Positions 2,837 to 50,743 of a stretch of DNA of 54,023 nucleotides are shown one piece after another (positions within the stretch are counted from its first letter, which is position 1; each line of letters starts with the position of its first letter). Position numbers and translations under genes: made by a program. This DNA comes from a virus (lineage: Duplodnaviria; Caudoviricetes). The DNA lies in the IMG/VR virus record IMGVR_UViG_3300037478_000666, positions 1-54,023 of that record; one strand, given 5' to 3'. Under the pieces are notes generated by a model. It was not told the origin of the DNA, did no database searches, and saw only the letters and a list, made by a program, of their open reading frames with translations.

Positions 2837-4388
2837 CCCGTTCCGCGCTGCAGCCGAGCTCGGCGCTCCCGCGGCGTTCACTGGCGGCAGCAGTGCCTAC
2901 CAGGGCGCTGTCTCGAATCGGTTCACGATGGACTGGGTGCTCGCCTCGATCCAGTCGGCCGATCAGGAGACGCGCGCCGATCTGCGACAGCTTCGGGCCC
3001 GCTCGCGAGAACTCGCCCGCAACAACGAGCTCGCGACGAAATACCTGCATCTCCTCGAGGAGCAGGAGATCGGGGAGCACGGCATGCGGCTGCAGGCGAC
3101 GGTCAAGCGGCCGGACAACATGCTCGATCGCGGCATCAATCAGCGCATCGAGGACGCGTGGCACGAATGGTCTGAACCGGCGAACTGCACCGTCGACGGT
3201 GGCATGTCGTTCGCCGAAGTGCTCGCACTGAACACGCGGACGCGTGCTCAGGACGGTGAGTACCTGGTCCGCATGGTGCCGATGGCGGGCCGCGCGTTCG
3301 GCTTCGCCCTCCAGATCCTCGATCCCGACCAGCTCGACGAGCAGTACAGCGAATACCGAGGCCCCGGCCAGAACGAGATTCGCATGGGCGTCGAGATCGA
3401 CGTCTGGGGCCGCCCGGTCGCGTACTGGCTCTACGACCGCCACCCGGCCGAGAGCGGCTTCACGAGCCGCGCCCGCGAACGCAAGTCGGCCGAGTTCATC
3501 ATCCACGACTACAAGCGGCTGCGCGCCGGTCAGACACGGGGCGTCCCGTGGTTTGCGCCGGCGCTGTTCAAGCTGCGGATGATTCACGGCTACGAAGAGG
3601 CCGAAGTCGTCGGGATGCGTGGCGCCGCGGCGCAGGGCGGCTTCTTCACACGCTCACCCGAGAGCGCGCAGGACCCGAACGCTCCGAAGGCCGACCAGCA
3701 ATACTCGGTCGACGTCGAGCCGCTGTCGTATCACGCGCTGCCGCCCGGCTGGGAGTACCAGGAGCGCGACCCCAAGCATCCGAACGACGCGTACAACGAG
3801 TTTCACAAGGCGATGATCCGGGGCATCGCGAACGGGCTGAACGTCAGCTACGCATCGTTGGCGAACGATCTGACGCAGGTCAACTTCTCCTCCATCCGTG
3901 CCGGCCTGCTGAACGAGCGCGACGCGTGGCGCCGGCTCCAGCAGCACGACATCACCCACTTCTGCACGCCGGTCTACCGGACATGGTTCGCGTACGCGCA
4001 GCTCTCGGGCGCGCTGCAGCTGCCCGACCGCAATCGCGCCCGGTGGCTCCGTCACCGGTTCCTGCCGCGCGGCTTCCCGTGGGTCGACCCGGAGAAGGAT
4101 TCGAAGGCGAACGCGCTGCAGATCCGCATGGGCCTGAACAGCCGAACGCGCCTCGCCGCCGAACAGGGCCGCGACTTCGAGGAGATCCTCACCGAGCTGG
4201 CGATGGAGGAGGCACTCGCGGCGGAGATCGGCGTGACGCTCTCGACGGACACCAGCAATTCGTCGAACGAGAACGCCGAGCCCGACAGCGAAGCGTTTGA
4301 CGAATTGCCCGAATCGCTGCGCGCCCGGCTCATGGACAGCCGCCTCTTCGCGCACCTCCAGCCCAACGGCAACGGGAGGCACGGATGA
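2829..4388 (+). CDS. Portal protein, lambda family
   Basis: LRARSRELARNN, GVEIDVWGRPVAYW, GQTRGVPWFAP, DLTQVNFSSIRAGL, WVDPEKD motifs; 519 aa. Confidence 0.95.
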   Translation: MRNPFRAAAELGAPAAFTGGSSAYQGAVSNRFTMDWVLASIQSADQETRADLRQLRARSRELARNNELATKYLHLLEEQEIGEHGMRLQATVKRPDNMLDRGINQRIEDAWHEWSEPANCTVDGGMSFAEVLALNTRTRAQDGEYLVRMVPMAGRAFGFALQILDPDQLDEQYSEYRGPGQNEIRMGVEIDVWGRPVAYWLYDRHPAESGFTSRARERKSAEFIIHDYKRLRAGQTRGVPWFAPALFKLRMIHGYEEAEVVGMRGAAAQGGFFTRSPESAQDPNAPKADQQYSVDVEPLSYHALPPGWEYQERDPKHPNDAYNEFHKAMIRGIANGLNVSYASLANDLTQVNFSSIRAGLLNERDAWRRLQQHDITHFCTPVYRTWFAYAQLSGALQLPDRNRARWLRHRFLPRGFPWVDPEKDSKANALQIRMGLNSRTRLAAEQGRDFEEILTELAMEEALAAEIGVTLSTDTSNSSNENAEPDSEAFDELPESLRARLMDSRLFAHLQPNGNGRHG

Positions 4389-6973
4389 TCGACAATCCGA
4401 GGCGGCTGCTGTCCGCCTTCGGCTCGACCGCATGGGCCATCCAGGAATCGAAGCTCGAAGAGATCTGCGCCTTCCTCGAGCTGCGCGCCGCGGGCGGATC
4501 GCTCTCGGCCGATGAAGTACGCGCTCTCACATCGAGCAGCCGGAACGGGAAGGTGCAGTCCCGCGGCGGCGTCGTCGTGATCCCCGTGACCGGCTCGATC
4601 ACGCAGCGCGCGAACATGCTGACCGAGTACAGCGGCGGAACGTCGACCGAAAAGCTCGGCGCCCAGATCGACGCCGCGCTGAACAGCCAGGACGTCCGCG
4701 CGATCGTGCTCGACGTCGACTCACCGGGCGGCAACGTCAGCGGCGTTCCGGAACTCGCCGAGAAGATCTACGCCGCCCGCGGCCAGAAGAAGATCGTGGC
4801 CGTCGTGAACTCGCTGATGGCGTCCGCCGCGTACTGGATCGGCTCGTCGGCCGATGAAATCGTGATCACCCCGTCCGGCATGGTCGGCTCGATCGGCGTG
4901 CTCTGGGTCCACACCGAGTTCAGCGAGATGGACGCGGCGATGGGCATCAGGAACACGATCATCCGAGCCGGCCTCCACAAGGCCGAAGCGAACTCCATGG
5001 AGCCGCTGCCGGACGGTGCCCGCGAGCGCATGCAGACGATGGTCGACGACTACTACGACCAGTTCGTCGCGGCCGTCGCGCGCAACCGCCGCACCACGCC
5101 CGATGCTGTCCGGAAGGGCTATGGCCAGGGCGATGTGCTGACGGCGAAGCGCGCGGTCGGCGCAGGCCTCGCCGACCGCGTCGCCACGCTCGAGCAGGTC
5201 CTCTCCGAGCTCGGCGTCGAGCCGAACGCACTCGCCGAAGCCCGCGCGAAGGCCGCGACCGAGGAAGCGCGCAAGCTCGCCGCGGCCATCCCCGAATCCC
5301 GCTCGATCGAGATCGCAGCCGAGATCGAAGCGCACGGCATCATCGCCGAGCGCGTTGTGCTGCCGGTCCCGGTCGTCACGCTGGGAGCCGGCGACTACAC
5401 CGATGACGAGGACGATCCGGACGCGGCCGACATGCCCGACAATGAGCCGGATCCGCTCAATGATGACGAGCCGGAGACTGAGGACGAGGACGAAGACGAC
5501 GCGGCCGATGAGGGGGTAGCGGCCGTGCCCGATCAGCCTACCCCCGAACTCAACACGGCCCCCGCGGCCGAGGAGACCAGCATGGCCGATCAGGTCACTG
5601 CGGCCCCGGGTGGGGCCACGAAAATCACGGCAGTCGAGGCGACCGCCGCGGAGCGCCAGCGCGCGAAGGGCATCATGGCCCTCTGCCAGGAGTGGAGCAT
5701 GGCCGACAAGGCCGAGGGCTGGATCGACGCCGGCCTGTCGGTCGATCAGGTCAGTGCCGAGATCCTGAAGGTCAAGGCGCAGTCCGACGGCCAGCCGTTC
5801 CGCACACCGCCGCCGAAGCAGCTCCTCGACTGGACCGCCGAGGACCAGCTGAAATTCAGCGTGGTCCGTGCGATCAACGCTGCGGCGGATGGCGACTGGT
5901 CCGACGCGAAGTTCGAGCGCGAGGTCATGCTCGAGACGCAGAAGTCGCTCGGCTATGAGTCGCGCGGCGGCCGCAAGCTCCGCGGCAACAGCGTCATCAT
6001 CCCGACGGGACTGCGGGCGCTGCCGGACCCGTACCACGCCGCAGCCGCACGCACGGCCCGCCAGTTCGACCGCAGCTACGAGGACCCGCGGCGTCCGGGC
6101 GCGACGCTGACGGCGGGCGGTGCGACGTCCGGCGCCGAGCTCGTCTTCACCGAGGCTGGCAGCTTCATCGACATGCTGCGCAACCGGATGGTGACGACGC
6201 GCATGGGCGCGACGTTCCTGCCGGGCCTGCAGGGCAACGTCGACTTCCCGAAGCAGACGGCGGCGGGAACGTTCACGTGGCGGGCAGAGAACCCGGGAAC
6301 CAACGTCGCGCTGAGCGACCTGGTCACCGGGTCGGTGGAGCTCCGTCCGAACGACGGGACCAGCCGCACCTCGTTCTCCCGCCGACTGCTCGCACAGTCC
6401 GTCATCAACACCGAGCAGCTCGTCCGCTCTGACCTGGCCGCGATTTCGGCGATCGGTCTCGACCTGGCCGCGCTACACGGGGCGGGCGGCAACGAACCGA
6501 CGGGCATCTACAACCAGTCCGGCGTGAACGCGGTCGCGTTCAACGGTGTGATCACGTACGCGAAGGTCGTGGACATGGAGACCGAGATCGCGGCGGACAA
6601 CGCCGACATCGGTCGCATGGGCTACGTCACCACGCCGCGCGTCCGCGGTGTCGCGAAGAAGACCGAGGTGTTCGCCACGACGAACGGCATGCCGCTCTGG
6701 ACCGGCACCGTTCTCGAAGGCGAAATGAACGGATACCGCGCACTCGCCTCGAACCAGCTCTCAAGCACGCTCGGGTCCGGTGCCGAGCACGGAATCATCT
6801 TCGGCGCGTGGGAGCACCTGCTCATCGGCGAGTGGGGCGCGATGGAACTGATCGTCGACCCGTACACGCTCGCCGGCCAGGGGCTCATCGTGATCACGAC
6901 CTTCCTGATCGCGGACGCGGCCGTTCGCTACCCCGAGGCATTCTGCATCGGGACGAATCTCCAGCTCTCCTGA
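4385..6973 (+). CDS. Fusion of S49 (SppA/gpC-like) head maturation protease, acidic linker/scaffold and HK97-fold major capsid protein
   Basis: LDVDSPGG, MASAAYWIGS, GSIGV protease motifs; D/E-rich linker; capsid motifs FIDMLRNRMV, GGNEPTGI, GEMNGYRALASNQ, IFGAWEHLLIGEWGAMELIVDPYT. Confidence 0.93.
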   Translation: MIDNPRRLLSAFGSTAWAIQESKLEEICAFLELRAAGGSLSADEVRALTSSSRNGKVQSRGGVVVIPVTGSITQRANMLTEYSGGTSTEKLGAQIDAALNSQDVRAIVLDVDSPGGNVSGVPELAEKIYAARGQKKIVAVVNSLMASAAYWIGSSADEIVITPSGMVGSIGVLWVHTEFSEMDAAMGIRNTIIRAGLHKAEANSMEPLPDGARERMQTMVDDYYDQFVAAVARNRRTTPDAVRKGYGQGDVLTAKRAVGAGLADRVATLEQVLSELGVEPNALAEARAKAATEEARKLAAAIPESRSIEIAAEIEAHGIIAERVVLPVPVVTLGAGDYTDDEDDPDAADMPDNEPDPLNDDEPETEDEDEDDAADEGVAAVPDQPTPELNTAPAAEETSMADQVTAAPGGATKITAVEATAAERQRAKGIMALCQEWSMADKAEGWIDAGLSVDQVSAEILKVKAQSDGQPFRTPPPKQLLDWTAEDQLKFSVVRAINAAADGDWSDAKFEREVMLETQKSLGYESRGGRKLRGNSVIIPTGLRALPDPYHAAAARTARQFDRSYEDPRRPGATLTAGGATSGAELVFTEAGSFIDMLRNRMVTTRMGATFLPGLQGNVDFPKQTAAGTFTWRAENPGTNVALSDLVTGSVELRPNDGTSRTSFSRRLLAQSVINTEQLVRSDLAAISAIGLDLAALHGAGGNEPTGIYNQSGVNAVAFNGVITYAKVVDMETEIAADNADIGRMGYVTTPRVRGVAKKTEVFATTNGMPLWTGTVLEGEMNGYRALASNQLSSTLGSGAEHGIIFGAWEHLLIGEWGAMELIVDPYTLAGQGLIVITTFLIADAAVRYPEAFCIGTNLQLS

Positions 6974-7711: not shown

Positions 7712-8172
7712 GCCCGGTCAACGCATCGCTCGGCAACCTCACGCTCGCGTGGGTGGATCGGCTCGCAGGCGACGCCACGTTCGAGAGCCTCGTGGGGCTG
7801 GATTCCGACGGCACGGTCCGGCTCGTACACGGCTGGCCCGACGAGTTGCTCCTGAAGCCGAGTCGGGACGACCTGCCGCGCGTCACGTGGATGACGACGG
7901 CGATTGTGCCACGCTCGGCGGATCCGGAGTACGTGATCATCGCGAGCGAGACCTGGGACATACCGGCGGACGCGGCCGACCCGGATCGCGGACTCGCAAC
8001 CGTGAACGCGATCGATGACCAGATGCTGGCACTGCTCTACCCGGACGAGAACGCGGCGACGTGGTTCGACACGGCGCGCGGAATTTACGTCTCGAGCGTG
8101 TGTCTCGAGGGCTCCGATCCACCGAGTCGCCTCATCCGGCGCCGCCGGCTCTGGCAGGTAGCGGCCGCATGA
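7708..8172 (+). CDS. Probable tail terminator protein
   Basis: Synteny; LPRVTW, ETWD and AIDDQMLALL pattern resembles tail terminator proteins. Confidence 0.5.
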   Translation: MSPVNASLGNLTLAWVDRLAGDATFESLVGLDSDGTVRLVHGWPDELLLKPSRDDLPRVTWMTTAIVPRSADPEYVIIASETWDIPADAADPDRGLATVNAIDDQMLALLYPDENAATWFDTARGIYVSSVCLEGSDPPSRLIRRRRLWQVAAA

Positions 8173-8549
8173 GACCGCTCCGCGACGTGATCCGCCGCAG
8201 GCCGAAGCGAATCCTCGAGCTCGAGGATGGTGCGTTCGCGCACGCGCTCCAGACGGCGGAGTCGATTCATCAGCGGCCGCAGCGGGTGCGCGTCGTGATC
8301 CTCGTGACGGACGACCCGCCCGAGGGGCGCGCAGAGACGATCCGACCATTCCGCAGGGAATTGCGGCTCGGCCGGCGGTGGAAAGAGTGGCGGACGTACT
8401 GGGAGGGCCCGTGGTCTCGGCTGCACGAGGAGATGCTGCGACCGAGTGCGAACTACCACGCGTTCATTCCGGACGACGCAACACTGAGGCGAGCAGCAGA
8501 GTTGGCCGACGCACGGGTGGCGATGGCTTCGGTTCGTTCCACAGTCTGA
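8169..8549 (+). CDS. Hypothetical protein
   Basis: ATGA-coupled start at 8169; fills the gap before the tail tube gene. Confidence 0.55.
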   Translation: MRPLRDVIRRRPKRILELEDGAFAHALQTAESIHQRPQRVRVVILVTDDPPEGRAETIRPFRRELRLGRRWKEWRTYWEGPWSRLHEEMLRPSANYHAFIPDDATLRRAAELADARVAMASVRSTV

Positions 8550-8562
8550 CAGCGAGGCGATA

Positions 8563-9096
8563 ATGGCGGCAGCAGCGAACGCTTTCACGCGCGGGCATTC
8601 CGAGGTTGGTCACGTCGCGGCCGGTCCGGTCGACGTCCCGTGGGGCAAGACGGCAGAAGAGGCGGTCGAGATCCAGATGAACGTGACCTCGGTCGACCTG
8701 TTCAGTTCTCAGTCGAAGATGGAGGAAGACACCGGGATCTCGCGGGTCTCGATGTCGCTGGCGATCAACGGCATCGACGGCGCCCTCCAGAACATCGGTC
8801 GCATGTTCGGCATGCCCGATACGGCTTTCACCGGCGACCTGTCGGCGAGCACGGACGAGGTGCTGCGCTTCGACCAGGACGACATCGGCGAGGAGGTCCG
8901 TGAGATCTACAGCCTCGGCGCCGGCGCGCTCGCGTCGGTCCGTCGCGTCTCCGCTCCGCGATGCAAGCTGACAGACGTCGGCCCGCTCGCGCAGTCGAAG
9001 ACCGGCTGGATGGTACCGAACGCCACGTGGCGCATCCTCAACCCGAACACGGCCGGCGTGTCCGTCCTGACGATCCGCGATCTCGCGTCTTCGTGA
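8563..9096 (+). CDS. Probable major tail (tube) protein
   Basis: 177 aa; GAGG RBS; WGKTAEEAVEI pattern; position before chaperones and tape measure. Confidence 0.6.
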   Translation: MAAAANAFTRGHSEVGHVAAGPVDVPWGKTAEEAVEIQMNVTSVDLFSSQSKMEEDTGISRVSMSLAINGIDGALQNIGRMFGMPDTAFTGDLSASTDEVLRFDQDDIGEEVREIYSLGAGALASVRRVSAPRCKLTDVGPLAQSKTGWMVPNATWRILNPNTAGVSVLTIRDLASS

Positions 9097-20994: not shown

Positions 20995-22859
20995 AACGAT
21001 TACTGATAGTCGCCGCGTTGCTCGCGGCCGGTAGCGGGGGCGTAGCAGCGCAGCAATGCACGGTGCCGACGTTCGGCCTGCCGTCCACAATGGGATCGCC
21101 GTACTATGTGATCCGGCTCGGACCGCCCGATGACACGTTGTCGGCACACACGACGCCGAACCGGGCGGCGGACCGGGTGCTCGAGTGGGCCGCCCGCGAT
21201 CCGCTCCGACAATACCGGGTACGCCAGACGCTCGAATGGCGGGCCGAGGTGTGCATCCCGCCTTTGCCGCCGGACACGTTGCCGCCCGAGGGACAGGACA
21301 CCGTACCCCTACCGCCGCCGGGTCAGGCAATCGTGCTCGATACGGTGGTCGAGATCGAAGGCGCGGGTATCGAGGTCACGGCGACCGCGAGAGACAGCGC
21401 TGGCGTCGTCGTGGGGTTGCCCGTGCGGTTCGACATCAGCGGGGGAACATTCGCTATCGGCTCGTGCTGCACTATCACGCGGAGCACGTCAGGTAACGGT
21501 ACGGCTGGCGTCGCATGGGTCGGGTTCGCGTCGACCGACAGCCTGACGATCACGGCTGCGGGTGCGGCTGCGGTCATAGTACGCCGGACCGTGCAGCCTC
21601 CACCCCCGCCGCCCCCGCCCCCTCCGCCGCCCGGTCCGATCGACAGCGCGGACGTTACGCCGCTCGCGCTGCGAACATTGCTCGGGCCGCTGGTTGCACG
21701 TGGAACGAATCCGACCGGCTGGCCGACATCGTTCGACCCGCGACTGGACGTGGCGATTGCGCGAATGGTGAGCGAGGTCGCTGCCGGTAGCTTCTCCGCG
21801 GTCATCGACGGCGGCGATCAGGACAATGCGCACTATGGCCCGCTGCGGTTGGTGGCCATGCGGAACATCCGGGCCGGGTTGCCGCTCGACGAGAGCGAAC
21901 CGGGATTCGCGGCGGCGCTGGCCGTGACTCGCGCCACGCTCCGACAGTATTCTATCCCGAACCAGAGCACGTTTTCACAATACAACCGGTACAGCGACTG
22001 GGCCGACTGTGAGCTGGTCGTGCTGCTGTATCGCGGCCAGGGGGATGACAACGGAGTACTCGCGGATCAGTGCCTGCGTCATCTCTGGATCGCGGCCGTC
22101 TGGGGCTCGACGTTCATCACGCCGCTGACAAAGAGTCTGACGCACCAGTGGATGGACACACGCACGGCCGCCATGGTGTTGGACATCGCGATGGCCGCCG
22201 ACCGGCTCGGCATTGCGTACGGTGTGCAGCCGCCGAATTACAGCCGCTCGTCGTGGAACAAGCCGGCCGGTGTCACAACGTGGCGCGAGTGGGTGCTGTA
22301 CCTGGGCCAGTGGATAGCGGACGTGCAGGCCGAGTCCGACCGTCGATTCGTGGGCATGACGGACGGCATGGGTCACGTGGTCCTGCCGGGCGGGACGCGA
22401 TGGAAAGGCAACACGGCGGAACAGCAGCATCCGATGCCGGCCGAGCCGTACGGGCTGAACGTGTTCATGTCGGCGATGCTCGCGGACGTATTGTTGCGCG
22501 CGGATCGCGAGTACGGCTGCACGGCGTGCCGCGATGTCGCAATCGCATCGGCCGCGGTCGTGCAGCAGAAGTACCACACGACCCGCCTGACGCTGCCGTA
22601 TCTGACTGCGGCCGCGCCGGCTGGCGGCACGTTCACGAACACCAATCAGGACTACGACCTGAACAATTTCTGGCCGGGGCCGCTGCTGCAGATGCACGCG
22701 CTGACAGGCGAGGCGTGGATGCGCGACATTGCGATCGGCCTGTTGGCAAACTCGCGACTCGGTGCGTGGGATTGGAGATTCAAGCAGGCGCAGCAACTGG
22801 GCTCCGCGACTTTTCCGCAGACCTCGGAGGCGTTGCTGGCCGGGCTGCGCTGGCGCTGA
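20991..22859 (+). CDS. Secreted protein: signal peptide, Ig-like region, poly-Pro linker, helical C-terminal domain
   Basis: AAGGAG RBS; MKRLLIVAALLAAGSGGVAA signal peptide; VTATARDSAGVVVG Ig-like; run of 12 Pro. Confidence 0.8.
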   Translation: MKRLLIVAALLAAGSGGVAAQQCTVPTFGLPSTMGSPYYVIRLGPPDDTLSAHTTPNRAADRVLEWAARDPLRQYRVRQTLEWRAEVCIPPLPPDTLPPEGQDTVPLPPPGQAIVLDTVVEIEGAGIEVTATARDSAGVVVGLPVRFDISGGTFAIGSCCTITRSTSGNGTAGVAWVGFASTDSLTITAAGAAAVIVRRTVQPPPPPPPPPPPPGPIDSADVTPLALRTLLGPLVARGTNPTGWPTSFDPRLDVAIARMVSEVAAGSFSAVIDGGDQDNAHYGPLRLVAMRNIRAGLPLDESEPGFAAALAVTRATLRQYSIPNQSTFSQYNRYSDWADCELVVLLYRGQGDDNGVLADQCLRHLWIAAVWGSTFITPLTKSLTHQWMDTRTAAMVLDIAMAADRLGIAYGVQPPNYSRSSWNKPAGVTTWREWVLYLGQWIADVQAESDRRFVGMTDGMGHVVLPGGTRWKGNTAEQQHPMPAEPYGLNVFMSAMLADVLLRADREYGCTACRDVAIASAAVVQQKYHTTRLTLPYLTAAAPAGGTFTNTNQDYDLNNFWPGPLLQMHALTGEAWMRDIAIGLLANSRLGAWDWRFKQAQQLGSATFPQTSEALLAGLRWR

Positions 22860-22937
22860 CTGTGGGGCGCGGTGATACTTACGTGACCGCGACAACACCT
22901 GAGTGATAGGGACTCTCTACCTTCGGAGGCGGAAGCC

Positions 22938-23234
22938 ATGAGCATGCAGGAACAGCGTGCGGCCGCGCACAAGATGGGGCTCGACGCGATCGCGTATTGG
23001 CGTGAGGCCGATGAGTTTTTCGCGAGCATCGCCGGCATGCGCGAAGCGGCAGGCGAGGGCTCTGTGATGATTTTCACGCGGGGCTACGATGCGAAGGAAG
23101 GGATCTTCCGGTTGTGGTACGGGTTGCGAACCGCGGCCGGCGAACAGGTGAGCGACGGCAATGGCGGCTTCTACGACGACGCAACGTGGCCGTGCCCACC
23201 GTTCCCGCCGCCGGGTGGCGGTGAGTGCATCTGA
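22938..23234 (+). CDS. Small protein ending in a PCPPFP...C motif
   Basis: GGAGG RBS; 98 aa; C-terminus FYDDATWPCPPFPPPGGGECI. Confidence 0.75.
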   Translation: MSMQEQRAAAHKMGLDAIAYWREADEFFASIAGMREAAGEGSVMIFTRGYDAKEGIFRLWYGLRTAAGEQVSDGNGGFYDDATWPCPPFPPPGGGECI

Positions 23235-23944
23235 TGGCCGTCCTGCAATGGGCGGTCTACCCGGCGCAACTGCTGCCGCTGGCGCTGTTCACGGTCCTCG
23301 CGATCTACGCGCAGATCCGCAAGCGATCACGACCCGACGACGACGCATGGCAGATCGCGACCGCGCTGGCGTTCTCATTCGCAGCCGATGCGGTCGCGCG
23401 GAAAATGATGGGCATGGGCATCAACAACAACATCGTGATGCACTTCGCCGCGCCGATCCAGTTCGGTCTGCTGCTGCATGTATTCCGGCCGCGCGACCTC
23501 GCGGTGGCGACTTTCGTGATGGTGCTGCTGACGCTCGCCGCGGCCTCCGATGGATTCGTGCGACCGGAACGGTGGATCCAGCTTACGATGGGCGTGTGGG
23601 TCGCGTGGGCCGCGTACCGGAGCGTCAGTCCGTACCGCTGGCCGGTGATGCTGTATTGCGCGGCGGCCGTGCCGTTGGTGGCATGGACGAGCCTGCCGCC
23701 ATCGCTCGACGGGCCATGGCTGGTGGCGTTCGGTGCGTATCACGTCGTGCGGCTCGTTGCTCTGTTGTGCGTGGTCGCCGTGCTGGCGGGCTCGCTGTAC
23801 CCCCGACGACAGGAGGCGACCGTTGAACATGTGGGGCGCGTTGGTCGCCGTCGCGGCCGAGGACCCTCTACTCACCGCTCTGCTGGTAGCACTGGCGGTG
23901 AACGCCTACCTGTCCGTGCGGGGCCGGCGGGCTGGCATTACTGA
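23234..23944 (+). CDS. Polytopic membrane protein, about 7 TM segments
   Basis: TGATG coupling to the upstream gene; seven hydrophobic stretches; GINNNIVMHF..IQFGLL motif. Confidence 0.75.
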   Translation: MAVLQWAVYPAQLLPLALFTVLAIYAQIRKRSRPDDDAWQIATALAFSFAADAVARKMMGMGINNNIVMHFAAPIQFGLLLHVFRPRDLAVATFVMVLLTLAAASDGFVRPERWIQLTMGVWVAWAAYRSVSPYRWPVMLYCAAAVPLVAWTSLPPSLDGPWLVAFGAYHVVRLVALLCVVAVLAGSLYPRRQEATVEHVGRVGRRRGRGPSTHRSAGSTGGERLPVRAGPAGWHY

Positions 23945-24089
23945 GGCGGAAAAGCACCCGTGCGATGGACTGCGCGTTGAGATCCGGACATTGACCGAGG
24001 CCATGTCACTGGCGCACGAAAAGTCGCGGACCGAGACCCGGCATGAGATCGAACGGGCAGTGGATGAAATTATACGCGGGGTCAAGTGA
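23823..24089 (+). CDS. Membrane-anchored coiled-coil protein (holin/spanin-like)
   Basis: AGGAGG then TTG at 23823 (or ATG 23829); N-terminal TM; overlaps the 3' end of the 7-TM gene. Confidence 0.6.
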   Translation: MNMWGALVAVAAEDPLLTALLVALAVNAYLSVRGRRAGITEAEKHPCDGLRVEIRTLTEAMSLAHEKSRTETRHEIERAVDEIIRGVK

Positions 24090-24343
24090 TGGCCGCCGAA
24101 GGTGAACGCAACGGGTCCGCCATGACCAAGGTCGTGATCGGCGTGTTCGCAACGCTCGCGGCTGCGGGTGTGATTGCGACGGCCGGATTCACGCAACGTA
24201 CCGCCGTGGCGGTCGAACGCACGAACGGCGCAATCGATAATGTCAACGTTGGTGTCGGGTTCCTGCGCGATCAGGTGACCACGCTGCAACGCCAGATCGA
24301 GAGTTTGGAGATACGGGTCAGAGCATTGGAGGTTCGACGGTGA
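24089..24343 (+). CDS. Single-TM coiled-coil protein (lysis region)
   Basis: VVIGVFATLAAAGVIATAG TM, then LQRQIESLEIRVRALE coil. Confidence 0.65.
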   Translation: MAAEGERNGSAMTKVVIGVFATLAAAGVIATAGFTQRTAVAVERTNGAIDNVNVGVGFLRDQVTTLQRQIESLEIRVRALEVRR

Positions 24344-24588
24344 TGAAAACGAATGGATCGCTACCCGTCTGGGTCATCCGCACGTGGCACCTGTCAGCGC
24401 TTCTGACGGCCGTGTTGATCGGCCTGCTTGCATGGTCGGCCCGTCAGACGGCCCGCACGAGTGCAGCGACGGAAACGGCTGTTCTGGAAGCCGTGGTCGA
24501 GTTGCGGTCAATGAACGCATTCTGGGGGCAGGCGCTGCGACGCGCGGATTCGCTGCGGGCAGTGTTGCGGGACTCGCTGGGGCGCTGA
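24340..24588 (+). CDS. Single-TM protein, possible i-spanin-like
   Basis: LSALLTAVLIGLLAWS TM followed by a helical segment. Confidence 0.55.
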   Translation: MMKTNGSLPVWVIRTWHLSALLTAVLIGLLAWSARQTARTSAATETAVLEAVVELRSMNAFWGQALRRADSLRAVLRDSLGR

Positions 24589-24831
24589 GTGCCCCGCATC
24601 GAGAAGGTCGGCACGTTCGAGGCGGTCTGGGCCGCGCCAGACGAGTACATCGTCAACCAGGCCACCGGCAAGCAGGGCAAGTGCATGGCGGGCAAGATCC
24701 GGATCACGAAGCTTGAAACCGGCCGGCGCTGGTATGTCGATGCCGACGACTTCCGCGATTCAGGCTGGACCGGGATCGACGCACCGACCCCGGACTATTT
24801 CCGGCAGCCACCAACGGAGGAGCCATCATGA
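24589..24831 (+). CDS. Hypothetical protein
   Basis: 80 aa; fills the operon gap; ATGA-coupled downstream. Confidence 0.6.
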   Translation: MPRIEKVGTFEAVWAAPDEYIVNQATGKQGKCMAGKIRITKLETGRRWYVDADDFRDSGWTGIDAPTPDYFRQPPTEEPS

Positions 24832-24968
24832 ACAAGTCACAGGTTGCGCTGCTGCTGTCGGTCATCGCACTGCTGATCGCCGCGTTGGGCCTGTTCGGCG
24901 TGGCGGCGCAGGGCGCAGCGATTGCGCTGATTCTGCTGGCCGTCGCGGTGGTCGTGCTGGCGGCGTGA
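24828..24968 (+). CDS. 46-aa two-TM protein, holin candidate
   Basis: GGAGGAG RBS; MNKSQVALLLSVIALLIAALGLFGVAAQGAAIALILLAVAVVVLAA. Confidence 0.7.
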   Translation: MNKSQVALLLSVIALLIAALGLFGVAAQGAAIALILLAVAVVVLAA

Positions 24969-25237
24969 CCGAACGCACGTGGCGGTTGCCCGACGTTCCG
25001 CGCGGAGACCTTCCGCCGGATCTCGACGACGGCCGCATCTGCTACTGGCGTGACGAGACGGGCGAGTGGTGGATCTACCTGCCACGCGGCGGCGTCGGGC
25101 GACTCACCGCCCACACGGTGACGGAGCACGAGGACCGAACTATCACCGTGAGCCCGTCGATCGGGATGCGGAAGTCGAGCGAGGGCGGCTTCGTTCGGCA
25201 TGGCTTCCTGGAGCGCGGCAAGTGGAGGGAAGTGTGA
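24965..25237 (+). CDS. DUF6527-like protein
   Basis: GTGA-coupled; TITVSPSI...RHGFLERGKW matches the TLxPSI..H.F...G.W pattern. Confidence 0.65.
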   Translation: MTERTWRLPDVPRGDLPPDLDDGRICYWRDETGEWWIYLPRGGVGRLTAHTVTEHEDRTITVSPSIGMRKSSEGGFVRHGFLERGKWREV

Positions 25238-25695
25238 CCTTCGATCTGTTCGAGCGCGACTTCGCCCGCGAGCTGCAACGCTACGGCGTCACAGACTTCC
25301 GGCCGTCGGAGTTCGCCACCGAGGTTGGCGGCGTGCCGCCGATGGGCCTGTGGGACAACGCCATGCCGACGATCGTGCGCATCCAGCGGTTCCGGTCGTT
25401 TGTCGGCAAGCCGATCGTCATCTGCACCCGCGCGCACGGCCGGCGAGGCTACCGGGACTATCGGGCGAACAACGCGGTCGGCGGTGCCAGCGGCTCGATT
25501 CACATGAGGTTCAATGCGTTCGACATGACCGTACTCGGGTTGAGTGTGGCCGAAACTGTCGAGGCCATGGACCGGTTGTTTCCGGAGCGGGATCGCGACC
25601 TGTGGGGCCGCGGTACATATACTGCCAGCGGCTTCATCCATTGGGATACCCGCGGGCTGTTGGGCGAGCCGGCGCCCGCCCGCTGGACGGCGTAG
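25234..25695 (+). CDS. Endolysin, peptidase M15A family
   Basis: GYRDYRANNAVGGASGSIHMRFNAFD and GFIHWDTRG Zn-peptidase motifs. Confidence 0.88.
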   Translation: MTFDLFERDFARELQRYGVTDFRPSEFATEVGGVPPMGLWDNAMPTIVRIQRFRSFVGKPIVICTRAHGRRGYRDYRANNAVGGASGSIHMRFNAFDMTVLGLSVAETVEAMDRLFPERDRDLWGRGTYTASGFIHWDTRGLLGEPAPARWTA

Positions 25696-25697
25696 CG

Positions 25698-26063
25698 TTA
25701 CTCGACCACCCAGCCGTCCGCCGTGAGCGCGTCGATCGCAGCCCGCAGGTTCCTCACCCGCACATGGTCGCGATCGACCGTCGCGCCCGGAAGATCGATA
25801 GCCGCCTCGTACGCAGCCGGCGACGTCGCGCTCAGCCAGCCGCCACGGCCGCCAGGTGAGCCACCGTCCGGCTGGGCGTAGATGTCCGCCCCTCGCGCTC
25901 GGCGGTGATCCTGCCACGCCTGGCGGCGCTTCCCGTGCACCCAGATCCGGCCGGCGAACGTCGCGGCCTCCGCCTCGTTGCCCGGTCGGCACGGCTCACC
26001 CAGATGAGCCCCGCAGGCGGGGCACGGCACGGCCGCTATCGCCTTGGCGTCGCGACGGCTCAA
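25698..26063 (-). CDS. Zinc-finger protein
   Basis: TTG start after GGAGGAG, overlapping the upstream stop; CPACGAHLGEPC...VHGKR. Confidence 0.7.
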   Translation of the reverse strand: MSRRDAKAIAAVPCPACGAHLGEPCRPGNEAEAATFAGRIWVHGKRRQAWQDHRRARGADIYAQPDGGSPGGRGGWLSATSPAAYEAAIDLPGATVDRDHVRVRNLRAAIDALTADGWVVE

Positions 26064-26389
26064 GCCACTCCTCCGATCACGTTGCCGTCCTCGTCGTACA
26101 GCGCCCGGTCGTCGTCTCTCCCCGGCCAGTCCGCCGGCACCGCAGCGGTCACGTACCAGCCGGACTCGCCCGTCGCCTGACTGCTCCAGTGTGCGCCGAT
26201 GCGGATCACGACAGCCGAGATCGAGCGGCGGCCGTCGGCTTGCAGGATCACGCGGTCGCCCCCCATGGTCCTGCCCGACTCGCCGCCCTTCCACGTGTAC
26301 TCGGCGGGCGCCTCGATGGTCTCGCCGGTCCGCTCGCAATCCTCGTCCAGCAGGTAGGCCGTCCGGTCCATCTCGTGTGCGGTGTCCAT
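26060..26389 (-). CDS. Hypothetical protein
   Basis: GAGGAG RBS; 109 aa; part of the leftward operon. Confidence 0.7.
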   Translation of the reverse strand: MDTAHEMDRTAYLLDEDCERTGETIEAPAEYTWKGGESGRTMGGDRVILQADGRRSISAVVIRIGAHWSSQATGESGWYVTAAVPADWPGRDDDRALYDEDGNVIGGVA

Positions 26390-28918: not shown

Positions 28919-29176
28919 ATGTCGCCCCAACCCCAACCGCTGATGGTAGCCATGCCGGAGATCGAAGGCAACAAGGTCGAATCCCTGTGGACGGAGGAAG
29001 AGGTTGCCGCCTATCTGCGCGTGCAGCCCAGCACCGTCCGGACGTGGGTGAAGTCTGGGAAGATTCCATTCGTCAAGGCCGGCAGCCTGAACCGCTTCCG
29101 CCGCTCAGAGATCGAGGAATGGGTAGTCATCGGACGGCAGCCGGAAGAGGAAGCCGTCTCCGACCCGGCCGCATGA
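28919..29176 (+). CDS. Excisionase-like HTH_17 DNA-binding protein (Cro position)
   Basis: LWTEEEVAAYLRVQPSTVRTWVKSGKIPFVKAGSLNRFRRSEIEEW; true start could be 28943 or 28952. Confidence 0.85.
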   Translation: MSPQPQPLMVAMPEIEGNKVESLWTEEEVAAYLRVQPSTVRTWVKSGKIPFVKAGSLNRFRRSEIEEWVVIGRQPEEEAVSDPAA

Positions 29177-42827: not shown

Positions 42828-44510
42828 ATGCCTACTCAACCTGCAGTTTCGATCGAGTGCGTCGGGTACGTCCGGGTCTCCACTGAGAGACAGGCCGGCG
42901 AGATGCACACCTCGCTGGCGGACCAGGCCGCCGCGATCGAGGAACTCGCTACACGCATCGGCGTGCGCGTCGAGCGCTGGTACCGCGATGCGGGCGCGTC
43001 CGGCGCGACCGTCGCGGCCCGGCCCGCGTTCCGGCAGCTGCTCACCGACTGCATGGCGGCACCACGGCCACGCTCGAGCCCGGGCTACGTGCTCATCCTG
43101 AACGACTCGCGATTCGGCCGCTTCCCGGATCCGGACGAGGCGGCCGCGCTCCGTTTCCAGCTGAAGCAGGCCGGCTGGCGCGTGCGGTTCGCCGAGGGCG
43201 ATGACGTCCAGGACGAGCTCTTCCGGCCGGTCGTACGCGCGCTCGGCAGCGCTCAGGCCTCCGAGTACAGGCGCAACCTGCAGCGCAACACCCGGCGTGG
43301 CATGAAGGGCGCCGCGAACCAGGGATTCTGGACGCGTCGCGCGCCGATCGGCTACCGCCGGAAAGTCGTGTACCCGCCCGGAGCCGAGCGCGTGCTCGAC
43401 CGACACCAGCTGAAGGCGCCCGACGAGAAGGTGAAGCTCACGCCGCACGAGGAAGAGGCGACACTGATCCGGTGGCTGTTCGAGGCGTACGTGTCCGGAC
43501 AGCACTCGCTCGCGAGCCTCTCCGCGGCCGCGGAGGAACGCTTCCCCGGGAAGCGGTGGAGCCGGAACGTCGTACAGCACATTCTGCGCAACGAGGTCTA
43601 TACCGGCGATGTGCGCGGCGGGCGGCGCAGAGACGAACCGGATCCGGAGCTGTACGGGTGCGATAACGCACACCCCGCCATTGTCGATCGGATGCTCTTC
43701 GAACGGGTCCAGCGTCGGCTCGAGGAGAACCGCAACCAGGCCGGAATGCAGGGCACGGTCTACCTGATGACGGGCATCCTCACGTGTCCGCATTGCAGCG
43801 AGCCCTACACCGGAGGCGGGGGCGGGCAGAGCCGGACGAAGAACCCGGCCGAGACGCACCGCCGGTTCTACCGTGACCGCGGCGGCGTGTCGGGCGCGTG
43901 CGCCGGCCGGATCGGCACCGTTATGCGCCACCTGATCGACGATGCGGTTGTGCGTACGCTCGGCCGCACGCTTCGATCCGCGGCGATGCAGCGCTATGTC
44001 GAGCGCGCTCTCGACGGGGAGCTCGCTGCCGCGATTGACGACAGCGGCGGCCGGATCCATTCCGCCCGGAAACACATCCATGAGCTGACGCGTTCACGGG
44101 AGCGCCTGATCGCGGCGATCGCTGATGGCACCGTGCTCCCGGGTGAGGCACAGGCGCGGTTGAACGCGATCCGCGCCGAGCTCGAGTCCCTCGAGACGCA
44201 GCTGCAGGTTGTCCGGTTCGGGCAGCGGAAGGTAGGCGCCGCCTCCGCGGAGCGCGAGGAGATCCTGCGGCTCGCGCGCGATTTCCCGTCGTACGCGGAC
44301 CGGTTCAGCCCGCGAGTACTCCGTGAGATGATCCGGCTCTGGCTGGCCGGCGCCACCTTCGACAAGCGGAGCCGTATGCTCGAGATCCGAATTCGCCGGC
44401 TCCCTGCCCTGCCATCCTTGGCCCTGTCCGGTTCGGGGGGGCTGACTGAACGCGAGGAAGCCCGGCCGCTGATTCGACGCGTCGACCTCCGCCAGGGAGG
44501 CGCCGCGTGA
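42828..44510 (+). CDS. Large serine recombinase (integrase)
   Basis: GYVRVSTERQ catalytic Ser, DAGASG..RPAF, SRFGR, APIGY, ILRNEVYTG, HPAIVD, Zn ribbon CPHC, coiled coil. Confidence 0.95.
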   Translation: MPTQPAVSIECVGYVRVSTERQAGEMHTSLADQAAAIEELATRIGVRVERWYRDAGASGATVAARPAFRQLLTDCMAAPRPRSSPGYVLILNDSRFGRFPDPDEAAALRFQLKQAGWRVRFAEGDDVQDELFRPVVRALGSAQASEYRRNLQRNTRRGMKGAANQGFWTRRAPIGYRRKVVYPPGAERVLDRHQLKAPDEKVKLTPHEEEATLIRWLFEAYVSGQHSLASLSAAAEERFPGKRWSRNVVQHILRNEVYTGDVRGGRRRDEPDPELYGCDNAHPAIVDRMLFERVQRRLEENRNQAGMQGTVYLMTGILTCPHCSEPYTGGGGGQSRTKNPAETHRRFYRDRGGVSGACAGRIGTVMRHLIDDAVVRTLGRTLRSAAMQRYVERALDGELAAAIDDSGGRIHSARKHIHELTRSRERLIAAIADGTVLPGEAQARLNAIRAELESLETQLQVVRFGQRKVGAASAEREEILRLARDFPSYADRFSPRVLREMIRLWLAGATFDKRSRMLEIRIRRLPALPSLALSGSGGLTEREEARPLIRRVDLRQGGAA

Positions 44511-49849: not shown

Positions 49850-50099
49850 GGCGAGGCAGCGCCGCGAGCGCGGTGAGATCGAGCGGAAGCGGTTCGAGCC
49901 CGGGCCACGACTGACGTCGAAAGGCTGGGTCTGGCTGGCGGCGGACGGGCACGTCTATCGGCTGGTCCGCGGCCGGCGCATCGAGGACTCGGCGTTCCGA
50001 CTCGACGTCCAGGCGGCGGCCGTGCGCACCGACAGCCGCATCGTGCGGCCGAGCGGTGATGATGTGCTGCGGATGGCGGCGGAGGCAGCGCGGAAGTGA
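49842..50099 (+). CDS. Hypothetical protein
   Basis: MGEARQRR start; 85 aa. Confidence 0.6.
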   Translation: MGEARQRRERGEIERKRFEPGPRLTSKGWVWLAADGHVYRLVRGRRIEDSAFRLDVQAAAVRTDSRIVRPSGDDVLRMAAEAARK

Positions 50100-50743
50100 T
50101 CACGGTCGTCACGGTGCTTCGGACCGGCGGCGGGACGTACACCGCCGAATGGGTGAACCGGCTGTATGCCGGGGTGCAGCGTCACCTTCCCGTCGACCAC
50201 GACTTTGTCTGTCTCACGGACGACCCGCGCGGAATAGATCGCGGAGTCTGCGTCGAACCGCTTCGTCACGACTGGCCGGGCTGGTGGGCGAAGCAGGAGC
50301 TGTTCACGCCCGGCCTGTTCGACGATCTCGTGATCTACTTCGACCTCGACACCGTGATCACCGGTGACCTGGTGCCGTTCACGGGCTACACCGGGCCTCG
50401 AGCGTTCCTGCGTGACTTCTTCCGCTACCGCGAGAACATGATCGGTTCCGGCATGATGCTCTGGAGCGGCGACGAGATGGCGGACATCTACCGCCAGTTC
50501 ACGAAGGATCCCGAGGCTCACATGCGAACCTTTCGCCGCCGTTCGGATGAGTTCACGAAGCGGTTCATGGGCCGCGGCCACTTCATCCAGGATCTCTACC
50601 CGGGCCTCGTCGTGAGCAGCAAGGCGCACTGCCAGACCGGTTTACCCGAGAACGCTCGCGTCGTCTGCATGCACGGCCGGCCGCGGATGACGGAACTCGA
50701 GCCGACGCACTGGCTGCGTCAGCGATGGGAGGCGGTCGCGTGA
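50096..50743 (+). CDS. GT-A fold glycosyltransferase-like protein
   Basis: YTAEWVNRL..FVCLTDD..GWWAKQELF..IYFDLDTVI (DxD)..CMHGRPR. Confidence 0.8.
   Translation: MITVVTVLRTGGGTYTAEWVNRLYAGVQRHLPVDHDFVCLTDDPRGIDRGVCVEPLRHDWPGWWAKQELFTPGLFDDLVIYFDLDTVITGDLVPFTGYTGPRAFLRDFFRYRENMIGSGMMLWSGDEMADIYRQFTKDPEAHMRTFRRRSDEFTKRFMGRGHFIQDLYPGLVVSSKAHCQTGLPENARVVCMHGRPRMTELEPTHWLRQRWEAVA

Follow-up and report, generated by a model that had tools for sequence, protein, structure and literature searches.

Annotation is mostly lacking for lysis cassettes in uncultured phages, and the window studied here, the whole 54,023 nucleotides of IMGVR_UViG_3300037478_000666 from an uncultured soil or sediment phage, raises the question of what a small protein with a Pro/Cys-rich tail and a translationally coupled seven-helix membrane protein do at the head of such a cassette. 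A preliminary description of this DNA had suggested that the two proteins make or sense a Cys/Pro peptide signal, act on a host two-component system, or tune lysis timing. We found that the pair, here called A and B, is not named in any database searched and that it recurs beside lysis genes in distantly related phages, so far only uncultured ones, with a third gene, C, usually next to it. This adds up to a module of two to three genes, strictly conserved, in which a receptor-like membrane protein accompanies a distinctive peptide tail.

Genes A and B as a coupled pair

The features of the pair are as follows.

22925..22929, + strand, Shine-Dalgarno sequence GGAGG of gene A, 8 nt 5' of the ATG (read from the sequence)
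22938..23234, + strand, gene A, 98 aa, soluble (ORF, hydropathy, structure model)
23187..23231, + strand, tail of A, W84-P-C86-P-P-F-P-P-P-G-G-G-E-C97-I98 (alignments)
23232..23236, + strand, TGATG stop/start overlap coupling A to B (read from the sequence)
23234..23944, + strand, gene B, 236 aa (ORF)
23234..23803, + strand, core of gene B, residues 1-190, seven transmembrane helices (AlphaFold2 model, pLDDT 80; alignments)
23804..23944, + strand, Arg-rich C-terminal tail of gene B (GC3, pLDDT about 50)

Gene A starts at 22938, after a gap of 78 bp that follows the stop, at 22859, of a 679-aa ORF of the tail region, and has its own ribosome-binding site, as the preliminary description had noted together with the TGATG shared by A and B. 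Both A and B look like genuine late genes and are translationally coupled. At 11 of the 12 A/B junctions compared, stop and start overlap (TGATG, ATGA, or GTGA); the remaining junction has a spacer of 2 nt. Between 22300 and 26200, no promoter-like site was found and terminator-like sites occurred at chance level, indicating that the pair probably lies in the late transcript. Relative to L003, a 93% relative, gene A carries 12 synonymous and 4 nonsynonymous codon changes, and the core of gene B carries 17 and 13, respectively; of the 24 strain variants of gene B listed from four metagenome runs, most (13) affect the third position of a codon. These codon patterns suggest purifying selection on both genes.

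An A-like ORF with the tail lay directly 5' of B in all 12 loci fetched via B relatives. Starting from the tail pattern, 3 of the 21 matches were genuine A-like ORFs, and B was directly downstream of each of them, so that the co-occurrence on which the preliminary description had relied was found from both sides. The tail motif search added 2 loci to the 12 found via B, giving 8 lineages in all; a narrower pattern, N-E-S-F-P-C-P-P, retrieved only the known contig and one chance match in AT-rich DNA. Identities among the eight lineages were 15 to 34% for A and 18 to 39% for B, with the exception of L007 and L008 (41% for A and 47% for B). Since eight lineages that have diverged to this extent share the gene order, the tail motif, and the coupling of stop to start, the pairing goes beyond chance. 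The identities of A and those of B were correlated (r = 0.88 for 12 pairs), as is expected anyway for linked genes.

Gene A encodes the 98 aa originally counted, with the C-terminus TWPCPPFPPPGGGECI; the ending quoted in the preliminary description was correct except that its last residue, I, had been omitted (final residues ...DDATWPCPPFPPPGGGECI). The predicted fold comprises helix-helix-three strands followed by a disordered tail (pLDDT 62), and in this model A looks like a small folded domain. A fold search with the low-confidence model gave no usable match (best Z, 3.7), and hydropathy revealed neither a hydrophobic segment nor a signal peptide. Members of the A family are 64 to 108 aa long. 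The Pro/Cys tail, PCP[P/I]...C, whose conservation had been presumed in the preliminary description, is indeed the best, and the only strongly, conserved part of the protein. The family motif reads N-x-S-x-P-C-P-[P/I]-x(1-10)-C and is followed by 0 to 7 residues. C86 and P87 are invariant in the alignments, and P85 is present in 11 of 12 rows of one (A5) and 14 of 16 rows of another (A6). The only universal residues are the two cysteines (usually C-P-[P/I]-x-C) and the neighboring proline, with a Cys-Cys spacing of 3, 5, or 10 residues.

The membrane protein B and its relatives

The AlphaFold2 model of B contains seven helices, which bears out the earlier estimate of roughly seven, and the motif NN....h....qF.ll was present exactly as quoted, namely, N65-N66 .... 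F71 .... Q76-F77-G-L79-L80. The topology is predicted to be N-out/C-in. Residues S48, D52, N65, P74, Q76, E112, Y141, W162, Y169, and R173 are conserved in both the family and the 12-lineage alignments. In the alignment of 38 sequences, P15, S48, D52, P74, Q76, E112, G120, Y141, P147, P156, W162, Y169, and R173 are nearly invariant, and no His or Cys is invariant or nearly so. A polar cluster within the membrane is composed of S48 and D52 on helix 2, Q76 on helix 3, and Y169 and R173 on helix 7, while N65, E112, and W162 would face the periplasm in the model. As modeled, these conserved polar residues are more in keeping with a binding site than with a protein that simply forms pores.

The fold class of B, as far as the model goes, is a generic GPCR/rhodopsin-like bundle. 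With VIA-align, the best Z was 11.9 (rmsd 3.9 Å, 182 aligned) and 87 chains reached a Z of at least 8, scores that fall in the range rated "a common arrangement" for helical bundles. The best Foldseek match was a proteorhodopsin at E 0.054, and none was found at E 0.001 or better. Structure neighbors in the ESM Atlas had TM scores of 0.63 to 0.73, and sequence identity across the fold matches was 5 to 17%. The nearest Atlas cluster was a YhhN-type family (TM 0.73), and other neighbors were seven-helix N-terminal regions from histidine kinases (TM 0.71) and LuxR-type proteins (TM 0.64); all three serve as leads only.

Neither A nor B matched any family in Pfam, PHROGs, NCBIfam, or PADLOC (B was compared with PHROGs at E up to 0.1 and 38 members of its family with Pfam-A at E up to 1), in agreement with the earlier supposition that B is not a known holin or transporter. 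Profile searches of PDB sequences gave no match for B and one row for A (E 0.56). B had no tblastn match in 50,697 cultured phage records, and no B relatives emerged when the genomes of 185,579 species were scanned with two patterns. An apparent match of A to Burkholderia phage KS10 among the cultured phages consisted of two rows only, at E = 1, which is chance level, and was rejected. Relatives of B form 46 representative clusters among 1.84 billion proteins; we set aside the Arg-rich extension of one of them, P0021 (459 aa), which looks like an out-of-frame read-through, and discarded P0043, a repeat protein, as a false match. Profile searches with A retrieved 11 proteins, all from metagenome sources (jgi, lgn, ena, src) and named at most "hypothetical protein." The preliminary description had mentioned Bacteroidota loci in which such pairs stand beside a histidine kinase and a LuxR-type regulator. 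These were not recovered by our searches for bacterial homologues of A and B, all of which rely on shared words or patterns; among the feature neighbors of A in the ESM Atlas were Bacteroidota clusters, which scored 0.89, under the bar of 0.9. A literature search on seven-helix phage lysis proteins and the PCPPxC motif returned no description of such a module.

Gene C and the lysis cassette

Downstream of the core of B, the following genes were identified.

23829..24089, + strand, gene C, 86 aa, single transmembrane helix at the N-terminus, C-terminal part helical and charged (ORF, hydropathy)
24086-24343, + strand, small gene with transmembrane segments (ORF, hydropathy)
24340-24588, + strand, small gene with transmembrane segments (ORF, hydropathy)
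24589-24831, + strand, small soluble gene (ORF, hydropathy)
24828-24968, + strand, small gene with transmembrane segments (ORF, hydropathy)
25066..25695, + strand, endolysin, Peptidase_M15_3 type (PF08291 at 1.2e-09; phrog_894 endolysin at 1.2e-11)

The pair both adjoins and overlaps the lysis region, as had been described: B and C share 116 nt, from 23829, in different frames, and 1.1 kb separate the end of B from the downstream start of the M15 endolysin gene. GC3 over the Arg-rich tail of B is 0.53 in the B frame versus 0.79 in the C frame, and the ribosome site of C, AGGAGG at 23811-23816, lies within B. Gene C, together with its ribosome site, thus probably determines the sequence of the B tail, which is short or missing in L010-L014, L024, and L026. 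Gene C, whose product is predicted to be oriented N-out, is likely a third member of the module: in L003-L008, L010, L011, and L026, the gene for a C-like single-pass protein begins within B or at its 3' end, and in L024 it follows B directly. The four small genes in 24086..24968 had no match in Pfam, PHROGs, or PADLOC and are candidates for holin or spanin-type lysis proteins.

A recognized endolysin lies 0.75 to 1.9 kb downstream in the window and in L003, L006, L007, and L008. The sole endolysin candidate in L004 and L012-L014 is a DUF5675 protein, none was recognized within 6 kb in L010 and L011, and the flanks of L024 and L026 are too short for judging this linkage. In the window and L010 the cassette comes after tail genes, in L003, L007, and L008 after long unnamed ORFs, and in L006 after the large terminase; in L012 and L014 it is situated between replication genes. 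Despite these changes of location, the module keeps the same small membrane-protein neighbors. The phage itself is temperate, with a serine integrase and an excisionase-like gene.

Possible functions of the pair

We favor, tentatively, the possibility that A and B, perhaps with C, form a late-made membrane complex that controls or assists lysis; what ties A and B to lysis is gene position only. A and B would be produced in equal amounts late in infection. As an accessory to the holin or a sensor resembling an antiholin, their complex would cooperate with the endolysin, with the single-pass coiled-coil protein C, and with the remaining small membrane proteins. B would read a membrane or periplasmic cue via its polar pocket, and A would dock by its Pro/Cys tail on the cytoplasmic face of B and relay the state of B to the pore-forming proteins. 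We infer both the binding of A to B and the effect on lysis. Since the polar residues of B point toward the predicted periplasmic side and A has no export signal, this docking side does not match the conserved pocket. In addition, several ordinary holin candidates are encoded in the interval from B to the endolysin, so that A and B may be dispensable to the cassette. Among the options offered in the preliminary description, tuning of lysis timing nevertheless fits better than peptide communication, given that the constant neighbors are lysis genes, that A has no signal peptide, and that B has no invariant His or Cys. If control of lysis timing is the function, the pair would represent a new class of lysis regulator, composed of a seven-helix sensor and a soluble adaptor, and lysis timing in such phages would be testable with a small, portable gene set. 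The closest functional precedent would be the action of T4 RI and RIII on holin T: both are accessory holin regulators, RIII is cytoplasmic, and RI senses a periplasmic superinfection cue (PMC8385771, in excerpt). In contrast to A and B, the T4 system has no seven-helix component, and its RI is secreted into the periplasm; the resemblance is one of function, is drawn from gene position alone, and comes with no sequence or fold relation found.

B could also be an unusually large pore former or holin, with A as its cytoplasmic inhibitor or chaperone in holin-antiholin style, which we regard as quite unlikely. Like genes of known holin families, B is located beside an endolysin; it heads the lysis cassette, is coupled to a downstream membrane protein, and has a basic, holin-like cytoplasmic tail. 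However, this tail is missing in four lineages and tracks the frame of gene C, no holin match was found in PHROGs, Pfam, or NCBIfam, and a conserved polar network on transmembrane helices is untypical of holins. Known holin families consist of small proteins with one to four transmembrane helices, against seven in B. For A as a regulator, T4 RIII, a cytoplasmic antiholin, again provides the precedent (PMC8385771, in excerpt). Alternatively, A and B may have an envelope function apart from lysis (superinfection exclusion, receptor masking, and transport are examples) and be merely parked by the lysis genes. Membrane proteins of unassigned role are common near the lysis or immunity regions of temperate phages, a seven-helix protein stands beside the integrase in mycobacteriophage Chancellor (PMC5679791, in excerpt), the conservation pattern of B resembles that of a ligand pocket, and L010 and L011 have no recognized endolysin nearby. 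An envelope function is unlikely all the same, in view of the facts that the module moves with lysis-type small membrane proteins to three genome contexts, that no promoter or terminator of its own was seen, and that B overlaps the next gene of the cassette. Highly doubtful is the idea that B is a membrane enzyme or a handler of metals or cofactors, for which the Cys-Pro tail of A would be the substrate or ligand site (thiol lipidation, disulfide or thioether formation, Cu, Zn, or heme). The restriction of universal A residues to the two cysteines and the neighboring proline would suit such a role, D52, E112, Y141, Y169, and R173 of B could make a catalytic or binding site, and the YhhN-type Atlas cluster is a lead toward it. 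The variable Cys-Cys spacing argues against it, as do the lack of any enzyme family match and the predicted cytoplasmic location of A, given that the residues conserved in B lie more toward the opposite side; PF07947 (YhhN) was unmatched in the window record and matched 1 of the 38 B-family members at E 0.46.

Peptide signaling, in which B would be an AgrB-like maturase or exporter that cuts or cyclizes the A tail and the released peptide would be sensed by other infected cells or lysogens, is in our judgment very unlikely. In its favor, a small protein with a C-terminal Cys motif is coupled to a multi-pass protein of AgrB-like size (about 190 aa), reminiscent of staphylococcal agr, where a small Cys-bearing protein, AgrD, adjoins a polytopic protein of about 190 aa; the phage is temperate; and the kinase and LuxR-type N-termini among the Atlas neighbors of B point the same way, as leads. 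However, the gene order is reversed relative to agr, A is two to three times as long as AgrD, there is no AgrC/AgrA-like pair, B had no Pfam match, and neither B nor 38 members of its family matched AgrB even at E up to 1. A, with its length of 64 to 108 aa and predicted secondary structure, has no signal peptide or leader-like cleavage motif, and its conserved part is the tail, whereas in peptide signals the core is usually the variable part. The genes are located in a late structural-lysis operon, and among the 57 window ORFs, all scanned with PHROGs and 11 also with Pfam, we found no receptor, kinase, response regulator, or AimR-like gene, which agrees with what had been said of kinases and response regulators; as the record is estimated to be about 88% complete, a kinase or regulator could sit in the missing part. 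Finally, AgrB is a six-helix protein in which a His77/Cys84 dyad is invariant (PMC10482373, in excerpt), whereas B has seven helices and no invariant His or Cys. With no kinase or regulator, no such dyad in B, and no signal peptide in A, the peptide-signaling proposal gained no support. On the other hand, the co-occurrence of the two genes, the conservation of the tail, and the lack of a match between B and known holin or transporter families leave the preliminary idea unrefuted. If a peptide is made or read after all, this would be a new route of phage communication.

We give little credence to a related reading, in which B would be a GPCR-like stand-alone sensor and A its Pro/Cys-tail signal partner, the two reading an external or envelope cue or emitting a Cys/Pro peptide at lysis and thereby setting the time of lysis, in a way unrelated to arbitrium or T4 lysis inhibition. 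Arbitrium (AimP/AimR) combines a short secreted precursor bearing an N-terminal signal peptide with an intracellular peptide receptor, whereas A lacks a hydrophobic N-terminal segment and PHROG scans gave no AimR-like match. B shares its arrangement, and the predicted N-out/C-in orientation, with seven-helix receptor-like bundles (GPCRs, microbial rhodopsins, and 7TM domains fused to kinases or LuxR-type HTH domains), but unlike bacterial 7TM sensors it has no fused output domain. Microbial rhodopsins carry a helix 7 lysine for the retinal Schiff base; helix 7 of B (residues 161-187) contains no Lys, and the family has R173. In length and predicted bundle, B resembles unnamed seven-helix "membrane proteins" encoded by actinobacteriophages (Sephiroth, Rabbitrun, and Bantam of Gordonia and Archie of Mycobacterium), with TM scores of 0.37 to 0.54 and E values of 0.08 to 0.74 by Foldseek on BFVD and no sequence match by tblastn. 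Regardless of function, the pair provides two new protein families for annotation, together with a recognizable C-terminal motif, N-x-S-x-P-C-P-[P/I]-x-C, ahead of a 7-TM gene.

A coupled gene pair conserved among uncultured phages

Gene A encodes a soluble protein with a Pro/Cys C-terminal tail, gene B a seven-helix membrane protein coupled to it, and gene C comes next:

Features of the A-B-C region of the window
Stop at 22859: upstream ORF
22925-22929: GGAGG ahead of gene A
22938-23234: gene A, 98 aa, C terminus DDATWPCPPFPPPGGGECI
Up to 23944: gene B, 236 aa, with N65-N66....F71....Q76-F77-G-L-L
23811-23816: AGGAGG of gene C, inside B
23829-24089: gene C, starting inside the tail of B

The window DNA bore out every element of the preliminary description of A, its tail, the coupling and the B motif, the TGA of A and the ATG of B having one A in common (TGATG). 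A failure of A and B homologues to co-occur had been named beforehand as an outcome that would refute the signalling idea. We collected 12 loci with B relatives (L003-L014) from IMG/VR and JGI metagenomes, of which L006 and L009 have identical translations and contigs of equal length and are probably one contig, while L012-L014 and L010/L011 form close sets. At all 12 loci, the ORF directly upstream of B ended in the tail motif (last codons only in L005), with tails reading ...FNESFPCPPRCG, ...FNIAVPCPPDCDPPPNGD, ...FNISHPCPPFC, ...ENASWPCPIFCPGG(GP) and ...TNNSHRCPPFTDCP. The A stop and B start overlapped as TGATG, ATGA or GTGA at 11 of the 12 junctions, the remaining one having a 2-nt spacer.

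The reverse search, using a DNA pattern for N-x-S-x-P-C-P-P-x-C in IMG/VR, gave 21 places; at three of them (L024, L026 and L036, the last a contig already known) the motif closed a genuine A-like ORF. A B homologue lay immediately 3' of all three (hmmsearch E 4.6e-29, 1.1e-25 and 2.8e-81, respectively), so that co-occurrence held in both directions. The L030 place was out of frame with no B match downstream, and L020 was the end of an 88-residue stop-to-stop frame, probably by chance, with no B match in about 315 nt downstream. The other 16 places fell mid-ORF or in very short frames, according to a frame listing in which some minus-strand offsets are doubtful, and had no downstream B match. 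Including the window, eight lineages were represented, with identities of 15 to 34% for A and 18 to 39% for B, except for L007/L008 (41% and 47%); pairwise identities of A and B were correlated (r = 0.88), as expected of linked genes. A-B is thus a conserved module, coupled in translation and accompanied by lysis genes, so far in uncultured phages only.

Word-based profile searches gave an A family of 11 proteins of 84 to 103 aa, from metagenome sources only. The PCPP-C tail proved to be conserved, C86 and P87 being the only invariant residues and P85 being present in 11 of 12 rows of one alignment (A5) and 14 of 16 of another (A6). No hydrophobic stretch, leader or signal peptide was found in A, and its model was weak (pLDDT 62), with two helices, three strands and a disordered tail; a structure search with it gave no usable match.

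For B, phmmer was run exhaustively against 1.84 billion representative proteins and returned 46 matches at E <=0.001, 22 at <=1e-10 and 2 at <=1e-30. Nearly all relatives measured 200 to 260 aa; four fell outside 199 to 257 aa, and the three of these that were inspected were a repeat-protein false match, an apparent out-of-frame read-through and a fragment. One homologue, P0020, breaks off in helix 7, after which an FtsB/DivIC-like coiled coil follows (PF04977, 3.5e-12; NF002058 FtsB, 2e-05); the join may reflect a genuine fusion or an assembly chimera. In a 38-sequence alignment, P15, S48, D52, P74, Q76, E112, G120, Y141, P147, P156, W162, Y169 and R173 were near-invariant. When the most distant members were included (12 lineages), Q76, Y169, R173 and S48 were found in every row, W162 was missing only from L024 and D52 only from L007.

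Neither family had a match in Pfam, PHROGs, NCBIfam, PADLOC or PDB sequences, or among 50,697 cultured phage records, and both are unnamed in every library searched; B accordingly matched no known holin or transporter family of Pfam, PHROGs or NCBIfam. Full-text literature searches turned up no account of a module or motif of this kind.

Compared with L003, the closest relative of the window phage, whose B is 93% identical, A showed 12 synonymous and 4 nonsynonymous codon changes and the B core 17 and 13. Strain variants of A-B-C 85 to 99% alike over window 22900-24100 occurred in four sediment and soil metagenome runs from four studies (X1-X4). Among the best-supported variant places listed for these runs, 4 of 8 in A and 13 of 24 in B were at third codon positions. 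One X4 contig carries a 1-base deletion and a 1-base insertion, at 23580 and 23582, which offset each other.

Predicted fold and topology of B

The AlphaFold2 model of B, built with 38 family sequences, had a mean pLDDT of 80 and a pTM of 0.71, with a poorly modelled tail and helices at residues 2-28, 36-60, 66-83, 87-106, 111-129, 135-151 and 161-187. Lys/Arg counts placed the basic residues in the odd loops and the tail, which suggests an N-out/C-in topology. Foldseek against the PDB gave nothing at E 0.001 or better, the top matches being proteorhodopsins and GPCRs (E 0.05-0.1); helix 7 lacks Lys, which rules B out as a retinal protein. With VIA-align against 48,161 chains, the best match was a designed GPCR-like fold (Z 11.9, rmsd 3.9 Å, 182 residues aligned), followed at Z 10-11.6 by GABA-B, LYCHOS/GPR155, Smoothened and adhesion GPCRs; all these Z values are common for helical bundles. 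Among viral models, herpesvirus GPCRs ranked best together with unnamed seven-helix "membrane proteins" of Gordonia/Mycobacterium phages (E 0.03-0.7). ESM Atlas structure neighbours, all below the bar for naming a family, included a YhhN-type cluster (TM 0.73), the seven-helix N termini of a histidine-kinase cluster (0.71), a LuxR-HTH cluster (0.64) and 7TMR-DISM (0.63).

Lysis-gene surroundings and possible roles

The constant surroundings of A-B are small membrane proteins and a cell-wall hydrolase, the latter swapped among relatives:

Hydrolases, and a hydrolase candidate (DUF5675), beside the module
Window 25066-25695 and L007:7544-7999: Peptidase_M15_3
L003:8626-9276, L006:7425-7913 and L008:8223-8852: Amidase_2, 0.75-1.9 kb downstream
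L004:1704-2477, downstream of the pair, and L012:4671-5291, upstream: DUF5675 protein

In L004, DUF5675 occupies the place held by the endolysin in other relatives. No hydrolase was recognised near the module in L010 and L011; the flanks of L024 and L026 extend only 1.2 kb. The position of the cassette varies: it comes after tail genes (window, L010), after long ORFs without a name (L003, L007, L008) or after the large terminase (L006), and in L012 and L014 it is flanked by helicase and primase genes. A scan of window 22300-26200 showed no promoter-like site, and terminator-like sites only at chance level; A-B probably belongs to a late transcript. L003 carries a patatin-like phospholipase (PF01734, 4.2e-17; 7748-8758), which may be a lipid-degrading lysis accessory, between A-B-C and its Amidase_2 endolysin, a place taken by other small genes in the window. 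The window (24713-25237) and L006 (8558-8899, with a weak DUF6527 match of 2.4e-4, below cut-off) each have, close to the endolysin, an ORF whose end reads ...H-T-V-T-E-H-E-D-x-T-I-T-V-x-P-S-I.... In the window it overlaps the annotated endolysin start, and the true start may therefore be later.

The start of a C-like protein falls within B or at its 3' end in the window, L003-L008, L010, L011 and L026, and immediately behind B in L024. These proteins have one N-terminal helix, basic residues behind it and a charged helical remainder, and those of three lineages have P-C-[D/E]-G-L-x-x-E-I in common, in the form P-C-[D/E]-G-L-[R/H]-x-E-I just after the TM helix:

C proteins with the motif
Window 23829-24089
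L007:6584-6871
L008:6530-6892

The motif is a further conserved Cys adjoining a Pro. The C start and Shine-Dalgarno sequence lie within the B 3' end (23811-23944 in the window, and the corresponding stretch in L003-L008, L010, L011 and L026); in the window, L004 and L006 the two genes overlap by about 100-116 nt. From 23829, GC3 was 0.53 in the B frame versus 0.79 in the C frame, indicating that the B tail sequence is probably dictated by gene C; the weakly conserved "LEV" of B tails arises where the GGAGG of gene C is translated in the B frame.

We tentatively read A-B as a late-made membrane complex that, with C, would affect when or how the membrane step of lysis proceeds; its sole tie to lysis is gene position. 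In this reading B would be a receptor-like bundle whose transmembrane helices carry a polar site, and A would bind B through its Pro/Cys tail. Against such docking, the polar residues conserved in B are placed towards the inferred periplasmic side, and A carries no export signal. In function, T4 comes nearest: its lysis is regulated by the periplasmic antiholin RI and the cytoplasmic RIII (PMC8385771). It is rather unlikely that the pair has an envelope role outside lysis (superinfection exclusion, for instance), and distinctly unlikely that B is an atypical large holin inhibited by A.

The preliminary description had suggested that A and B may be a peptide precursor and its receptor or maturase; a role in peptide signalling we consider improbable. 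None of the three refuting outcomes named there was observed, but no positive evidence for signalling emerged either. Unlike AgrB homologues, for which PMC10482373 reports an invariant His/Cys dyad, B has no such dyad in the 38-sequence alignment; A lacks a leader or signal peptide, and a scan of 57 window ORFs showed no gene for a kinase, regulator or receptor. The Bacteroidota kinase/LuxR loci mentioned there were not recovered by searches that relied on shared words and patterns; among the ESM Atlas feature neighbours of A were Bacteroidota clusters at 0.89, below the tool's bar. We give equally little credence to the idea that the pair works on the Cys tail as a membrane enzyme or in metal handling. 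Should A-B control lysis, the kind of regulator would be known and the seven-helix receptor-like part with a Cys-tailed soluble partner new, while a sensing or signalling role would be categorically new. The observation of the pair itself is solid and easy to test.

The phage and its host

The window record is estimated to be 88% complete, with a G+C content of 64-70%, and PHROG scans gave a temperate, siphovirus-like layout:

Genome features of the window
141-1568: large terminase (PHROG)
Then: portal, fused protease/major-head ORF, tape measure, Dit and a 1,436-aa PKD/lectin protein, followed by A-B and the endolysin
25066-25695: Peptidase_M15_3 endolysin
Beyond: excisionase-like gene, SbcCD-like nucleases, methyltransferase, serine integrase, DnaC-like loader, RusA
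28919-29176: excisionase-like HTH protein
42828-44510: serine integrase (phrog_95, 3.9e-67)
50096-50743: glycosyltransferase moron (phrog_1962)

Judging from its serine integrase and excisionase-like HTH protein, the phage is temperate. The closest cultured-phage relatives of its portal (35-41% identity) come from Roseobacter and Synechococcus phages and the remaining matches mostly from phages of Gram-negative hosts, which gives only a hint about the host; the phage may alter the host surface through the glycosyltransferase. The 862-aa ORF at 4385-6973 looks like a protease-capsid fusion, residues 4-470 matching head maturation protease phrog_53 and residues 395-859 major head protein phrog_617.
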